Assembly: GCA_044355355.1 (NCBI GenBank)
Contig: JBIKYI010000096.1
Location: 1-7,767 of the forward strand
Direction: 5' to 3'
From: Limnothrix sp.
GTDB lineage: Bacteria > Cyanobacteriota > Cyanobacteriia > Cyanobacteriales > MRBY01
Length of the DNA: 7,767 nt
Positions 2,472-7,767 of this stretch are shown here, in pieces. How positions within the stretch are numbered: position 1 is the stretch's first letter; every line of letters starts with the position of its first letter. The notes below the pieces were generated by a model that did no database searches, was not told the origin of the DNA, and worked only from the letters and a program-made list of their open reading frames with translations. The translations under genes were made by a program, and so were the position numbers.

Positions 2472-2670
2472 CCAATAGTATCCAGAGATTGATTCGATAT
2501 TTAACAGATATTGCATAAGTATTAAACAAAGATTTCGTCTTTCTTCATCTAGCCACCCAGGATCAAAAAGTCAGCATACAATGCCAGTAAAGGCATTCTG
2601 ACTGGCAGTTAATAATGTAAAAAGCATCACCTTGGGCGTAGGGTCGGTCTTCCGTCGTCCCCAAGCATCG

Positions 2671-2678
2671 GCGATCGC
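2671..2678. repeat. HIP1 palindrome GCGATCGC
   Basis: exact octamer (GGCGATCGCC), leader of the nucleotidyltransferase gene. Confidence 0.95.
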
Positions 2679-2736
2679 CAATCCCATTAACGCCGCCAGC
2701 AAGCTTGGTTCACAAAGCAAGAGAATTTTTATTTTT

Positions 2737-5277
2737 ATGCGTGCAGTACTGATGGCGGGTGGTTCCGGGACAAGATTACGTCCGCTGACCTGTGATTTGC
2801 CGAAACCCATGGTTCCCGTCTTGAACCGACCGATTGCAGAGCATATTATTAATCTTCTCAAACGCCACCACATCACCGAAGTTATTGCCACCCTCCACTA
2901 TGTCCCCGATGCCATGCGGGATTACTTCCAAGACGGTCGAGATTTTGGCATCAAAATGCACTACGCCATCGAAGAAGAGCAACCCCTCGGCACCGCAGGC
3001 TGCGTCAAAAATGTCGAAGAACTCCTCACCGATACCTTCCTCGTGATCAGTGGCGATAGTATCACCGATTTTGACCTCTCGGCGGCGATCGCCTTCCACC
3101 GCGAAAAACAAGCCAAAGCCACCCTCGTCCTCACCCGCGTGCCCAACCCTGTCGAATTTGGTGTCGTCATCACCGACGAAGATCACCGCATCTGCCGCTT
3201 CCTCGAAAAACCCTCCACCAGCGAAATCTTCTCCGATACCGTCAATACCGGAACCTACATCCTCGAACCAGAAGTCCTGCAATACCTACCCGTTAACGAA
3301 GAAAGCGACTTTTCCAAAGACCTATTCCCCCTCCTCCTTGAGCGGGGCGAACCCATGTTTGGCTACATTGCCGAAGGCTATTGGTGCGATGTCGGTCACC
3401 TCGATGCCTACCGCAAAGCCCAATACGATGCCCTCGCCCGTAAAGTCAAAGTCGAATATGCCTACGAAGAGCGATCGCCCAACATTTGGATCGGCAAAAA
3501 TACCTTTATCGACGACACCGCCGAACTCCACCCCCCACTCCTGATCGGCGATAACTGTCGCATCGGAGCCTACGTCCGCATCGAACCCGGCACCGTCATC
3601 GGCGATAACGTCACCATCGGCGCCTATGCCGACCTCAAACGCCCCATCATCTGGAACGGCGTAACCCTCGGCGAAGAAGCCCACCTCAGAGGCTGCACCA
3701 TCGTCCGGGGCAGCAGAATCGATCGCCGCGCCCACATCCTCGAAGGAGCCGTCATCGGTAGCCTATCCACCGTCGAAGAAGAAGCCCAGATCGGCACAGG
3801 CGTAAGAGTTTGGCCGAACAAACGCGTCGAAGCCGGAGCCATCCTCAACATGAATCTCATCTGGGGAAACACCGCCCAACGCAACCTCTTCGGACAACGT
3901 GGTGTATCCGGACTCGCCAACATCGACATCACCCCAGAATTTGCCGTCAAACTCGGCGCATCCTACGGCGCAACCCTCCGCATCGGTTCCTCAGTAATCG
4001 TCTCCCGCGATCAGCGGAGCGTCTCCCGCATGGTCAGCCGTTCCCTCATTGCCGGCTTAATGTCCGCAGGCATCAACATCCAAAACCTACAAGCCACAGC
4101 CATTCCCATCGCCCGAACCATGGCAACAACTCTTGATGTCGAAGGCGGCATCCATGTCCGTCTGCACCCTGAGCGCCAGGATCACCTCCTCATCGAATTT
4201 ATCGATGCCCAAGGCATTAATATCTCCAAAGCCAAAGAGAAAAAAATTGAAGGCGCTTACTTCAAGGAAGAATTACGCCGCGTCCCCATCAACGAAATTG
4301 GCGATATGTCCGTCCCGGCTCAGGTCGTCGAAGGTTACAGCCAAAGATTTGAGCAATATCTCAACGTTGGGGCGCTCACCAACAGCGGCTCTAAGGTGGT
4401 CATTGATTATGCCTATGCTGTTGCTAATGCGGTTTTACCTCGCCTGTTGTCTAAATTCGATTGTGATGCGATCGTCCTCAATGCCAGTTTGAAACAAACC
4501 TCCCTAGTGGGTCAGGAAAAGGAATTACTGCTGCTGCAACTGGGTCATGTGGTGGAAGCATTACGCGCCAGTATGGGGGTACAGGTGTCAGCCAATGGGG
4601 AACAATTAACCCTGGTTGATGAGACTGGGCAGGCAATCCAAGGGGAACAACTCACGGCTTTAATGGTGAATATTTTGCTCACGGCAAATCCCCGGCGAGC
4701 GGTCGTTGTGCCTGTTTATGCCTCTAGTGCGGTGGAGCAGATTGCCCGTCGCCATGATGGTCAGGTCATTAGAACAAAGGCTAATCCGACGGCATTGATG
4801 GAGGCTTCCCGCAACCATCCAAATGTGGTGTTGGGGGGCAGTGGGGATATGGGTTTCATTTTCCCGGAGCTACATCCTGGGTTTGATGCGATGTTCACGA
4901 TCGCCAAGTTGATCGAAATGCTGACGATTCAGGAGCGATCGCTGGGACAGATTCGTGAGGAGTTACCGACGGTACACCACAAATCTCACACCATGCGCTG
5001 TCCTTGGCGGGTCAAGGGTTCTCTGATGCGTCACCTTGTGGAGATCCATAATAATGACCACATTGAATTGATTGATGGGGTCAAGATTATCGATCCGCTG
5101 TCTGATAATTGGGTGTTGATCCTCCCGGATGCGGGGGAACCGCTCATTCATATTTTCGTGAACAGCAATAGCCATGAATGGGCAGAACGCAATCTTTGGG
5201 AATATCGCCAACGGGTGCAAACGTTTATCTCCCAACATCAAAATGGGACTATTTCGGAGTTTGATGATCGGCTGTAG
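2737..5277 (+). CDS. sugar-1-phosphate nucleotidyltransferase (mannose-1-phosphate guanylyltransferase-like) fused to a left-handed beta-helix and a phosphohexomutase (PGM/PMM)-like C-terminal module
   Basis: 846 codons from ATG 2737. The N-terminus MRAVLMAGGSGTRLRPLT...LPKPMVPV is the nucleotidyltransferase G-loop. Hexapeptide repeats (IGDNCRIGAYVRIEPGTVIGDNVTIGAYADL...) span about 3544-3850. The C-terminal ~450 aa align by eye to alpha-D-phosphohexomutase domains I-IV. The architecture matches my recollection of ~840-aa cyanobacterial proteins annotated as mannose-1-phosphate guanylyltransferase. The ORF-track start at 2632 (TTG) adds 35 residues ahead of the G-loop and is unlikely. Confidence 0.9.
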   Translation: MRAVLMAGGSGTRLRPLTCDLPKPMVPVLNRPIAEHIINLLKRHHITEVIATLHYVPDAMRDYFQDGRDFGIKMHYAIEEEQPLGTAGCVKNVEELLTDTFLVISGDSITDFDLSAAIAFHREKQAKATLVLTRVPNPVEFGVVITDEDHRICRFLEKPSTSEIFSDTVNTGTYILEPEVLQYLPVNEESDFSKDLFPLLLERGEPMFGYIAEGYWCDVGHLDAYRKAQYDALARKVKVEYAYEERSPNIWIGKNTFIDDTAELHPPLLIGDNCRIGAYVRIEPGTVIGDNVTIGAYADLKRPIIWNGVTLGEEAHLRGCTIVRGSRIDRRAHILEGAVIGSLSTVEEEAQIGTGVRVWPNKRVEAGAILNMNLIWGNTAQRNLFGQRGVSGLANIDITPEFAVKLGASYGATLRIGSSVIVSRDQRSVSRMVSRSLIAGLMSAGINIQNLQATAIPIARTMATTLDVEGGIHVRLHPERQDHLLIEFIDAQGINISKAKEKKIEGAYFKEELRRVPINEIGDMSVPAQVVEGYSQRFEQYLNVGALTNSGSKVVIDYAYAVANAVLPRLLSKFDCDAIVLNASLKQTSLVGQEKELLLLQLGHVVEALRASMGVQVSANGEQLTLVDETGQAIQGEQLTALMVNILLTANPRRAVVVPVYASSAVEQIARRHDGQVIRTKANPTALMEASRNHPNVVLGGSGDMGFIFPELHPGFDAMFTIAKLIEMLTIQERSLGQIREELPTVHHKSHTMRCPWRVKGSLMRHLVEIHNNDHIELIDGVKIIDPLSDNWVLILPDAGEPLIHIFVNSNSHEWAERNLWEYRQRVQTFISQHQNGTISEFDDRL
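3085..3092. repeat. HIP1 palindrome GCGATCGC
   Basis: exact octamer inside CDS 2737-5277. Confidence 0.95.
3471..3478. repeat. HIP1 palindrome GCGATCGC
   Basis: exact octamer inside CDS 2737-5277. Confidence 0.95.
4935..4942. repeat. HIP1 palindrome GCGATCGC
   Basis: exact octamer inside CDS 2737-5277. Confidence 0.95.
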
Positions 5278-5355: not shown

Positions 5356-5739
5356 ATGGATCCGATCACTTTGTTAGTTGCCGTCCTCGGAATTTATGGA
5401 TCTGGAATTGTCGCGAAGGCGGGGGAAGATACTTTTGATCACTGTCGCCAGTTGTTAACGGCTAAACTCAAGGGTTCGGCTACGGGTCAGGCTTTGGCGG
5501 CGGGAACGGAGATTGATCCAGAACAGGCGGTGATTGATGTGGAGGCGATCGCCCTTGATCCAGAAGTGCAAGTTCTTACGGAAAAAATCCAGCAATTGAT
5601 CGCCCAAAATGAGGATTTACAACGGCAATTCAATGAGGCGATTCGGCAACAACCGCAGGTAATTCATAAAAATTGGCAGGGGATTAATGCGGAGACGGGC
5701 AGCAATGTCACGGTTCATAATCCGACGTTTAACTTTTGA
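5356..5739 (+). CDS. hypothetical 127-aa protein: N-terminal hydrophobic Gly-rich helix, acidic repeat, coiled-coil-like helix, N/Q/G/T-rich tail (candidate effector/partner of the downstream NLR-like NTPase)
   Basis: ATG 5356 is the first possible start, since an in-frame TGA lies at 5344. Visible segments are ITLLVAVLGIYGSGIVA (aa 4-20), IDPEQAVIDVEAIA/LDPEVQVLTEKIQQ (a 14-aa repeat), EKIQQLIAQNEDLQRQFNEAIRQQ, and the tail NWQGINAETGSNVTVHNPTFNF. G-rich codon style matches the 5' part of the downstream gene. I recognise no family. Confidence 0.65.
   Translation: MDPITLLVAVLGIYGSGIVAKAGEDTFDHCRQLLTAKLKGSATGQALAAGTEIDPEQAVIDVEAIALDPEVQVLTEKIQQLIAQNEDLQRQFNEAIRQQPQVIHKNWQGINAETGSNVTVHNPTFNF
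5545..5552. repeat. HIP1 palindrome GCGATCGC
   Basis: exact octamer inside the 127-codon ORF; it is the last HIP1 in the window. Confidence 0.95.
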
Positions 5740-5790
5740 CTACAGTCGTCTGAATCGGTAGCGCGGACAAAGTTAGAGGCTCCGAATAAT

Positions 5791-7767
5791 TTGCGACAAC
5801 GGACGGTTCCCTATTTCGTCGGGCGGGAAGAGGAACTTAAAAGTTTGCATGGTTTCCTGTCGGATGGGGAATCGGTGGCAATTTCGGCGGTGTCGGGCAT
5901 GGGTGGCATCGGCAAATCTGAACTGGCGTTGCAATATATCTATCGTTCGCAAGCAGCTTATCCAGATGGGATTCTTTGGCTGGATGCGACATCGGCAACT
6001 TTTGCGGAGGAGATTATCGGGTTTGCGGTGGGGACATTAAAGCTGTCTGTACCGGAGGATTTACCGCCAGTGCAAAAGGTGAGGAGCGTTTGGGCGCATT
6101 GGCTGGGGACGGATCCGGTGTTGGTGGTGGTGGACAATATCAATCAGCCAGAGGATTTTACGCGGGTACAGGAATTTTTGCCCTACGGTTATCAACGGTT
6201 TCGGGTGTTGGTGACGAGTCGGGTCAAGTTGGCTGGATTGCGGGAATTGCCGTTGGATTTGTTGCCGCTAAAACAGGCGGTTAAATTGTTAGCACGATTA
6301 GCAAAGGCATCTGAGCGCAAAAATTGGGATCGGAAAGCTGCAAAAAATCTTTGTAAACGGTTGGGGCGGTTGCCGTTGGCGGTGGCGTTGGTGGGGAGCT
6401 ATCTGGGGCTAGATCTGAATTTGGGTTTGGCTGAAATGACGGCATTGCTAGAGAAAAAAGGGCTGGATGCGCGGTGTTTGGACAAGCCTGATCCGACGGT
6501 GGCAAAGCGGGGAGTAAAAGCAGCGTTTGATTTGTCGTGGGAGCATCTGACGGCGGAAACGCAACGGTTGGCTTGTGTGCTGGCGATGTTTGCCCGTGCG
6601 CCTATTGAGTGGCGATTGGTGGAAAATACGTTTATTTCGACGGATTCGGAGGAAGCCCCACAATTTGACCGCTTTGATTTGACGGATTGGCGGCAGGAGT
6701 TGCTGCGTTATTCGTTGTTACAGGGGGTGGAATTAGCGGAACAGGGGCGATCTGGTTATCTGTTGCATCCGTTGATCTGGGAATATCTGCGCCAGAAAAT
6801 ACCGACAGTGCTGGATGAGCAAATACGGCGATCGATGGTGAAGGCGATCATTACAGAAGCAGAAACTATTGAATACAACGCGCCCCTTGCGGACTACGAA
6901 AAAGTGCGTCTCTCTATTCCACACATAACCGAGTTAGCGGAAGAGTGGACAGAATTATTGAATCAAGATGATGTGATTACGCCTTCTACAAGAATTGCCT
7001 TTTATTATCTTTGCCGGTTATTTGACATTGAAGGAAGCGAATATTGGTTTCAGAAGACTATCGCTTTAGCAAAAAAACTATTACCCAAAAACCATATGGA
7101 TATTGTTGGAGCACTCAATAATTTAGCTGAGTTCTATAGTAAGCAAGGAAGATATCAAAGAGCTTTATCTATATATTCAGAATGCTTTGAATTTAAGAAT
7201 TTAAATAAAAAACCTGCTTTGCTTGCTATCTTACAGAATAACCAAGCATTAGTTCATGTAGGACTTGGGGAGTTTTCTAAAGCTGAAGTCTTGTACAGGA
7301 AAGCTATGGAGATTGAGCGAAAACATTTATCTGAAGACGATCCAAGTCTTGCGAATAGCTTAATCAATTTGGCTGATTTACTGTCTAAGCATTTAGAACA
7401 AACTATTGAAGCAGAGTCTTTATACTCAGAAGCACTAGAAATAGCCCGTAAGTCATTACCTAAAAATCATCCAAGTCTTGCAAATATTATTTTTAAAGTT
7501 GCAGAATTTTATGAATCTAAAGGAGACTTTTTAATTGCAGAAACTCATTTCTTAGAAGCTATAGTGATTGCACGTGAATCATTTTCTAGGAATCATCCGA
7601 ATTTTGCTGCGATGCTTAATAATGTGGCAATGATGTATATCAAGCTAAACAAAATATCGAAAGCTAAGCCCTTACTACAGGAATCGCTTCGTATTATTCG
7701 ACTACGGTATGGCGATGGACATCATTTGACTCTAACTATTCTTGAAAATTACGAGGCAATTCTCTAA
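5791..7767 (+). CDS. NB-ARC (AP-ATPase clade STAND NTPase) protein with C-terminal TPR array; NLR-like / Avs-like
   Basis: 658 codons from TTG 5791, with GAGG at 5776-5779. NB-ARC motifs read from the translation are FVGREEEL, Walker A GMGGIGKS (5896-5919), Walker B VLVVVD (6118-6135), RVLVTSR, GLPLA-type GRLPLAV (6364-6384) and MHD-like LHPLIWEY (6763-6786). From about 7050 there are about 5 kinesin-light-chain-type TPR units (e.g. ALNNLAEFYSKQGRYQRALSIY, PSLANSLINLADLL, PSLANIIFKVAEFYESKGDF, AAMLNNVAMMYIKLNKISKA). The first in-frame ATG (5899) lies inside the P-loop, so a non-ATG start or read-through is required. The stop codon is the last triplet of the window. Confidence 0.9.
   Translation: MRQRTVPYFVGREEELKSLHGFLSDGESVAISAVSGMGGIGKSELALQYIYRSQAAYPDGILWLDATSATFAEEIIGFAVGTLKLSVPEDLPPVQKVRSVWAHWLGTDPVLVVVDNINQPEDFTRVQEFLPYGYQRFRVLVTSRVKLAGLRELPLDLLPLKQAVKLLARLAKASERKNWDRKAAKNLCKRLGRLPLAVALVGSYLGLDLNLGLAEMTALLEKKGLDARCLDKPDPTVAKRGVKAAFDLSWEHLTAETQRLACVLAMFARAPIEWRLVENTFISTDSEEAPQFDRFDLTDWRQELLRYSLLQGVELAEQGRSGYLLHPLIWEYLRQKIPTVLDEQIRRSMVKAIITEAETIEYNAPLADYEKVRLSIPHITELAEEWTELLNQDDVITPSTRIAFYYLCRLFDIEGSEYWFQKTIALAKKLLPKNHMDIVGALNNLAEFYSKQGRYQRALSIYSECFEFKNLNKKPALLAILQNNQALVHVGLGEFSKAEVLYRKAMEIERKHLSEDDPSLANSLINLADLLSKHLEQTIEAESLYSEALEIARKSLPKNHPSLANIIFKVAEFYESKGDFLIAETHFLEAIVIARESFSRNHPNFAAMLNNVAMMYIKLNKISKAKPLLQESLRIIRLRYGDGHHLTLTILENYEAIL

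Follow-up and report, generated by a model that had tools for sequence, protein, structure and literature searches.

The locus described here lies in positions 1 to 7,767 of contig JBIKYI010000096.1 from the Limnothrix sp. assembly GCA_044355355.1, and this whole stretch of 7,767 nucleotides (nt), read on the forward strand, is referred to as the window. At the 3′ end of the window, a small open reading frame (ORF) for a putative Bell-type effector is followed by a long ORF for an NB-ARC/TPR protein of the NLR type, and the two are separated by a single UGA stop codon with C in position +4. Comparison with related loci points, with moderate confidence, to a Bell/BASS7-NLR module with programmed read-through, in which the weak stop would give abundant free effector and a rare effector-motif-NLR fusion. 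The features of the locus are the following.

5356-5739, + strand: small ORF with an ATG start, 127 residues ending in ...NPTFNF; putative Bell-type effector with a C-terminal amyloid-signalling motif
5356-5649, + strand: Bell-like domain of helices, residues 1-98; its N-terminal helix (MDPITLLVAVLGIYGSGIVAKAGEDTFD) is hydrophobic and Gly-rich
5665-5736, + strand: BASS7-like amyloid-signalling motif HKNWQGINAETGSNVTVHNPTFNF, residues 104-127; BASS7 pairs are given in Table S2 of Dyrka et al. (2020)
5737-5745, + strand: UGA-C stop signal with a CUR codon (UGA-C UA CAG); stop at 5737-5739, +4 C at 5740
5740-7767, + strand: whole open frame 3′ of the stop, 675 codons, TAA at 7765-7767; proposed extension of the small ORF
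5740-5814, + strand: 25-codon linker from the stop to the FVGRE motif, its first ~10 codons being a class-specific cassette
5748-5768, + strand: conserved hairpin of 5 base pairs (bp), GUCUG at 5748-5752 pairing with CGGAC at 5764-5768 around an 11-nt loop and starting 8 nt after the stop
5791-5793, + strand: TTG from which gene callers start the NLR, GAGG lying 8 nt upstream; candidate secondary start in the Limnothrix window
5815-6405, + strand: NB-ARC NTPase module, with FVGRE at 5815-5829, the P-loop GMGGIGKS at 5896-5919 and the Pfam NB-ARC match at 5827-6405
7111-7725, + strand: TPR sensor repeats, the TPR_12 and TPR_10 matches covering residues 458-662 of the 675-residue ORF

The junction between the two ORFs had been singled out in an earlier sequence-only reading of this DNA, and its description holds in every particular. 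One in-frame UGA-C is all that separates the small ORF from the NB-ARC ORF; it is followed by 17 in-frame sense codons (LQSSESVARTKLEAPNN) and then by the TTG. No in-frame ATG, GTG or TTG is found between 5740 and 5790 in the window, and the downstream ORF has its first ATG at codon 54 after the stop, as the P-loop Met. The two ORFs share frame 1, and reading through the stop would give 127 + 1 + 675 = 803 residues. The proposed effector-NOD-sensor layout (NOD, nucleotide-binding oligomerization domain) was also right: the Bell-type small ORF is adjoined on the same strand by the ORF with NB-ARC (Pfam, E 5e-11) and TPR_12/TPR_10 (E 7e-39 and 2e-31) matches. Public gene calls record the NLR of the window as the 658-residue product that starts at the TTG, 51 nt downstream of the small ORF. 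Across the spacer only frame 0 is open, the other two being closed. Taken on the window alone, a shared frame (chance value 1/3) and 17 codons without a stop (about 0.44) are not beyond chance. The arrangement is nevertheless non-random, because all 13 related loci with a motif-less downstream ORF keep the frame, the open spacer and the +4 C.

The small ORF can be identified as a Bell-type effector with a BASS7 motif, because its tail matches BASS7 and a member of its family is listed as a Bell/BASS5 protein. The string HKNWQGINAETGSNVTVHNPTFNF matches the BASS7 entries NENWQGIN.K.G.N.I..NTFNF, for example NENWQGINAKGGINVIKDNTFNF, of Table S2 in Dyrka et al. (2020). The family member is the protein of locus L039 (L numbers denote the loci compared) in Pseudanabaena sp. 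SR411, which matches the small ORF over residues 1-127 (E 1e-12); its C-terminal string is that of OYQ63525.1, the NLR-paired Bell/BASS5 entry bass_05 of the same table. In the AlphaFold2 model, six helices span residues 3-98 with a predicted local distance difference test score (pLDDT) of about 63-83, and the tail, residues 101-127, is predicted to be disordered (pLDDT <50). The family shares a hydrophobic, Gly-rich N-terminus, a helical body and a variable C-terminal tail, and K21, G23 and D28 are conserved in its alignment.

Homologues of the small ORF numbered 9 in a word-indexed search and 26 in an exhaustive HMMER search of 1.84 billion cluster representatives. Nearly all of the relatives are free-standing proteins of 92-170 residues, and no stop-less fused homologue was found among those cluster representatives. 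Two long "homologues" (P0025 and P0032) were considered as fusions and rejected as spurious matches to unrelated repeat proteins. On this comparison, the small protein appears to be a real free-standing product in every relative. Pfam gave no match to the small ORF even at E up to 1, Foldseek of the AlphaFold2 model against the PDB gave none with E<1, and neither tblastn against a plasmid collection nor a scan of viral contigs returned a match.

In Bell/BASS systems, the C-terminal motif of the effector is repeated at the N-terminus of the adjacent NLR, and this NLR-side copy is thought to template the effector into the amyloid state (Dyrka et al. 2020). About 70 related loci were gathered for comparison, and they include two classes. 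The canonical loci (many from Pseudanabaena, together with Crocosphaera L016 and L042, L006, L020/L062 and L052) have an NB-ARC/TPR gene that starts with ATG shortly 5′ of its own motif copy. Local alignments of their effector and NLR motifs typically score 57-111, with some weaker pairs at 30-37. The canonical NLR genes lie in any frame, after TAG-G, TAA-T, TGA-T or other stops, and toxin-antitoxin-like genes sometimes stand between the Bell gene and the NLR.

The window class comprises 13 lineages: the window itself, L013, L001 (Leptolyngbya sp. PCC 7376), L065-L071, L015 (identical with L004), L031 and the L008 group; all except the L008 group carry an NLR, giving 12 NLR lineages. In 13/13, the downstream ORF is in the frame of the effector, the spacer contains no stop and the other two frames are closed, at a small-protein identity that falls to about 35%. 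The NLRs of this class have no motif copy of their own; in the window, the best match to the effector C-terminus within 1.5 kb downstream scores 28 and is spurious. The NLR-side copy of the two-gene pair is absent here, and the read-through product alone would carry the motif. Two motif types, BASS7 and QGYQF...IGGNHTHHHY, are found 5′ of this one junction. The canonical and window classes are interleaved in a neighbour-joining tree of the Bell domains, which makes the arrangement old, or exchanged among lineages, or both.

Both the effector and the NLR ORFs are intact and under purifying selection. The NLR ORFs of the window class are uninterrupted over 562-755 codons, and in the NB-ARC region of the close pair L065-L066 the proportions of nonsynonymous (pN) and synonymous (pS) differences are 0.09-0.13 and 0.39-0.48, with pN/pS of 0.19-0.33. 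These data bear on the first explanation that the sequence-only reading had offered, namely a recent nonsense mutation, or a sequencing or assembly error, in a once-fused Bell-NLR gene that would now be a pseudogene. Other Bell families do contain "all-in-one" Bell-NLR fusions (Dyrka et al. 2020 preprint). The stop, however, is present in all 13 diverged lineages, from independent isolates, metagenome-assembled genomes and metagenomes and including a finished genome, both parts are intact and selectively constrained, and the search of the 1.84 billion cluster representatives gave no fused homologue. The explanation is considered refuted, its residual probability being negligible.

The stop signal itself is strongly conserved. 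It is TGA-C in 12 of the 13 lineages and TAG-C in the remaining one (L067), so that position +4 is C throughout. The following codon is CUG or CUA in 12/13 and CCG in the L008 group; among the 12 NLR lineages, CUG stands next to the stop in nine and CUA in the window, L013 and L031. Of the stop tetranucleotides at the long ORFs of the same loci, TGA-C is the least frequent and ends 2 of 114 (1.8%). Inefficient termination at UGA with C in position +4 has been documented in bacteria (PMC5289835). Only two indels are found in the spacer, both of 3 nt and one of them within the hairpin loop.

The first 30 nt after the stop are the sole part of the sequence that is specific to the window class. 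In these 10 codons pS is 0.28 and pN 0.33, as against a pS of 0.72-0.76 in the flanking coding sequence, and the resulting pN/pS of about 1.2 indicates constraint at the level of RNA rather than peptide. A low pS with an unsuppressed pN would be expected where an RNA signal overlaps the coding sequence. RNAalifold places a hairpin in this segment. Its pairing holds in 96.7% of the cells, and in three of the pairs both sides have changed; GUCUG/CGGAC, GGUGG/CCACC and GACGG/CCGUC are examples of compensated stems. None of 500 shuffles reached the observed values, and controls slid along the alignment were 23-46% paired. The loop (5753-5763 in the window) is purine-rich with a near-constant GGG or CGG, and resembles a Shine-Dalgarno sequence, as GGGAG or GGGAA in several lineages. 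It is complementary, too, to a run of CCC/CCG that lies about 20 nt downstream. A pseudoknot of the loop GGG with this CCC was assessed visually and dropped, as its register varies between lineages and L067 and L013 do not fit; nor does a consistent register speak for a contact of the loop with the ribosome. An Rfam scan gave no relevant match.

Two further explanations were weighed. According to the first, the ORFs are coupled in another manner, either by termination and a reinitiation that dispenses with a canonical start and could use, for instance, the CUG or CUA beside the stop, or through a hairpin that serves as an RNA-processing or regulatory site. The CUG placed directly after the stop in most NLR lineages, the constraint on the cassette at the RNA level and the Shine-Dalgarno-like loops fit such a coupling. 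Conversely, the CUA and CCG codons that replace CUG are not known initiators, most lineages have no start codon at a usable distance from the loop motif, and a promoter/terminator scan found no promoter-like or terminator-like site between the two ORFs. This coupling is regarded as improbable. According to the second, UGA is recoded, for instance as selenocysteine, the hairpin being an element similar to the selenocysteine insertion sequence (SECIS). An in-frame UGA with a hairpin close downstream is indeed what such recoding would present, yet UAG occupies the same position in L067, no homologue has Cys or any sense codon at the stop, the site falls in a disordered linker without catalytic context, and Rfam is silent. 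By the rules for bacterial SECIS elements, the loop is nearer to the UGA than is allowed and is without the constant G/U signature. Recoding is accordingly given very little probability.

Two other events at the junction were examined and discarded. Against a +1 frameshift of the prfB type at UUU UGA C (5731-5740) stands the closure of the +1 frame after 8 codons, and against transcriptional slippage the absence of a homopolymer run.

A further explanation is an ordinary two-gene operon. In this explanation, the small protein would end at the UGA, the NLR would start independently at a non-AUG codon (the TTG at 5791 in the window, GTG or TTG elsewhere), the motif-less NLR would reach the effector otherwise, the frame and stop context would be inherited accidents, and the 30 nt would be a regulatory or translation-coupling element. 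Cyanobacteria use GTG and TTG as start codons. Public gene calls employ such codons here, the window TTG is preceded by GAGG, and GTG candidates are present in L001 (codon 18), L065/L066 (codon 8), L067 (codon 7) and L068 (codon 4). The position of the candidate start is, however, not conserved between lineages. In none of the window-class NLR lineages does an ATG occur after the stop and before the P-loop Met, and four lineages (L015, L069, L070 and L031) have no ATG, GTG or TTG at all before the conserved F[VI]GR motif. For lineages of this kind gene callers fall back on the P-loop Met, as in the public calls for L069 and L070; this start is implausible, because the conserved N-terminal part of the NB-ARC module would be lost.

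The codons found at the position of the window TTG are TTG (four times), TTA (three times), GTG, GTT, GTA, CTC and ATT, that is, seven different codons. Judged from the orthologues, this would be an aliphatic (L/V/I) sense position and not a start. The residues 5′ of the candidate starts are conserved, with synonymous changes among them. Beyond the cassette, the linker has its homologue in the internal linker found after the NLR-side motif of L016, the canonical Crocosphaera NLR; differences between the L065 and L016 linkers are almost only synonymous, and synonymous substitutions are seen in codons 11-25. Because of this signature, the linker appears to be translated, also in the lineages without any possible start 3′ of the stop. 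Set against the two-gene operon are, in addition, the frame kept in 13/13 with indels of 3 nt only, the retention of the rarest stop signal, and an NLR deprived of the signalling motif that every canonical relative has. The operon is considered unlikely, while remaining the foremost of the alternatives.

The relation between the two classes is illustrated by L016 and L065, whose NLR linkers (compared in L016:413-700 and L065:950-1130) are nearly identical in nucleotide sequence. What sets the two apart is a motif copy in the one and the 30-nt cassette in the other: in the canonical L016, the ATG of the NLR overlaps the Bell TGA and the NLR has its own motif. This near-identity implies easy interconversion between the canonical and the read-through architectures. 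A more general proposal, for which the balance is about even, is that UGA-C, CUR and the 5-bp hairpin constitute a modular cassette that lets one ORF yield both arms of the module. The NLR would otherwise be untranslatable, and the cassette would have been swapped between the two motif types and would interconvert with the two-gene form.

The reading preferred here, programmed read-through, may be pictured as follows. Effector and sensor would be written as one frame interrupted by a deliberately weak stop. Most ribosomes would terminate at UGA-C and release the 127-residue protein, that is, the Bell membrane-targeting domain with its BASS7 motif. A minority would read UGA as sense by means of a near-cognate tRNA, probably tRNA-Trp, which would also set the inserted residue; the CUR context and the small hairpin 8 nt downstream would aid this event. 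Such ribosomes would continue into the linker, NB-ARC and TPR and produce a Bell-BASS7-NLR of about 803 residues. On a trigger, the TPR/NB-ARC sensor would oligomerise, and the clustered BASS7 segments would nucleate an amyloid fold. This fold would template the pool of free effector, and the Bell domains would then act on the membrane, presumably in cell death or defence. Read-through would in this way give the NLR its missing motif, keep both motifs identical and fix a high effector:sensor ratio.

The remaining interpretations of the sequence-only reading fared unequally. Its split pair with a TTG start agrees with the data as regards the free-standing small protein and disagrees as regards the TTG, for which orthologues have a sense aliphatic codon. 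Its third suggestion, leaky termination, is favoured by the comparative data, from which we infer that read-through occurs. The alignment of orthologues that it had recommended gave a conserved stop (UGA in 12, UAG in one) and frames shared 13/13, with no variable frames. Its interpretation is in this sense partly supported; the Bell/BASS7 identity, the missing motif of the NLR and the hairpin were not part of it.

Several points weigh against programmed read-through. It is a textbook phenomenon in viruses and is known in some eukaryotic genes, but it is almost undocumented for cellular bacterial genes and, to our knowledge, very rare in them. A GTG or TTG occurs somewhere in the spacer in 8 of the 12 NLR lineages, and in the window the TTG at codon 18 with its upstream GAGG could be an independent start of a motif-less NLR. 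The hairpin stem is weak (-2.8 kcal/mol in the window, -2.8 to -7.9 across lineages), the complete window segment is no more stably folded than shuffled versions of it (z = +2), and the hairpin was derived and tested on the same alignment of related sequences. A further difficulty is raised by the L008 group (L008-L012 and L017, e.g. L008:1183-3481), which has the same Bell domain, a type-B motif, TGA-C and the hairpin. Its 18-codon in-frame linker leads into a 79-residue ORF with its own ATG, which is followed in another frame, with a 17-nt overlap, by a TPR-only protein that has no NB-ARC. In this group, an NLR may have been remodelled or be decaying; alternatively, the cassette may be put to another use. 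Finally, the Bell membership of the small ORF derives from homology and the supplementary table of Dyrka et al. (2020), without a structural match.

Some other observations concern the canonical loci. In the Pseudanabaena loci L018, L028, L030 and L039, the NLR begins about 400-560 nt after the Bell stop with two N-terminal motifs in tandem, NKQTGLE.V..GGDA.I..SQEI and then HEPNKLA.K.G.V...GS.VNI, each of which matches the C-terminus of a different Bell subgroup. The sequences suggest one sensor that addresses two effectors. Small toxin-antitoxin-like genes lie between the Bell gene and the motif-matched NLR in L019, L020, L021-L027, L023/L034, L029, L036 and L038. They include a DUF29-like ORF of 144 residues, which is duplicated in some cases, a nucleotidyltransferase/HEPN-like pair and a HicB-like gene. 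On the 3′ side of the NLR, L006 and L008 also have HicA/HicB and RelB/ParE pairs. In the canonical BASS3-type Bell genes of L020, L044 and L062, TGA-C is followed six codons on (PQKYAI, LQKYAI or LPRYAI) by a second in-frame TGA, which looks like a tandem back-stop after a leaky signal.

Upstream in the window lie a gene for a putative endonuclease of the Uma2 family (296-925, - strand), one for a cupin protein (1160-2128, + strand) and one for an 881-residue nucleotidyltransferase/hexapeptide/phosphomannomutase fusion (2632-5277, + strand). A Uma2 gene is likewise found beside the orthologous pair of Leptolyngbya sp. PCC 7376, the neighbourhoods being otherwise unrelated. HIP1 palindromes (GCGATCGC), a cyanobacterial signature, occur 11 times across the window against 0.2 expected. 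A tRNA scan found nothing relevant at the window.

If the proposal is correct, these loci would provide a clean and conserved instance of programmed read-through of a stop codon in cellular bacterial genes, governed by a defined signal of 30 nt, and would be the first case known to us in an NLR or cell-death system. They would also explain how a motif-less NLR addresses its effector, and would offer a simple way to hard-wire both the effector:sensor ratio and the identity of the motif. For annotation, the consequence is that gene callers give window-class NLRs arbitrary or truncated starts, in some cases within the P-loop, so that this class is missed by surveys in which Bell C-termini are matched to NLR N-termini. 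Leptolyngbya sp. PCC 7376 (CP003946, Lepto7376_2624 and the next gene) is culturable and has a finished genome, so that the hypothesis is directly testable.

Among known systems, three kinds offer points of comparison. In terms of mechanism, the leaky UGA of the coat/A1 gene of phage Q-beta and the "type II" read-through signals share with the present one a leaky UGA with C in position +4, a CUA/CUG triplet, a structure 8 nt downstream and, as outcome, an abundant short product beside a rare extended one. The "type II" signal of alphaviruses and tobraviruses combines UGA-CUA or UGA-CGG with a stem-loop about 8 nt downstream (PMC3542737, PMC7026636). The distance of 8 nt is also the one usual for elements that stimulate read-through. 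Unlike these viral signals, the present one would serve a chromosomal bacterial gene, has a 5-bp hairpin instead of an extended stem-loop, and would add a receptor of 675 residues. The "type II" signals of eukaryotic viruses act on eukaryotic release factor 1 (eRF1), whereas release factor 2 (RF2) would be involved here; with release factors that differ, the likeness is one of form and does not argue for a common mechanism. The prfB (RF2) site is likewise a poorly terminating bacterial UGA-C, and its CUU UGA C resembles the UUU UGA C of the window, but prfB shifts to +1, and here the codon before the stop is not conserved in orthologues.

In terms of architecture, the read-through product would have the order Bell, NB-ARC, TPR of the "all-in-one" Bell-NLR proteins, from which it differs in that Bell and NB-ARC are set apart by an amyloid motif and a stop codon; free effector would thus be made as well. 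The closest relatives are the cyanobacterial Bell/BASS-NLR pairs of Dyrka, Saupe and colleagues (2020), of which L039 and L016 are canonical examples and the fungal HET-S/NWD2 and Escherichia coli Bab/Agp systems functional analogues. They have the same helical effector with a hydrophobic N-terminus and a C-terminal amyloid motif of about 25 residues, and the same collinear adjacent NB-ARC/TPR gene. The difference lies in the NLR of the window, which has neither the N-terminal motif nor an ATG and stands in frame behind a putatively leaky stop with an RNA cassette. The preprint of Dyrka et al. (2020) reports intergenic gaps and overlaps and makes no mention of stop codons or read-through, and its pairing method would skip motif-less NLRs; a literature search for read-through in connection with NLR, Bell, amyloid or cyanobacteria found no description of the arrangement. 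The Bell/BASS-NLR system is known, and within it the in-frame arrangement with a putatively leaky stop rates, as far as sequence comparison can tell, as a new variant.

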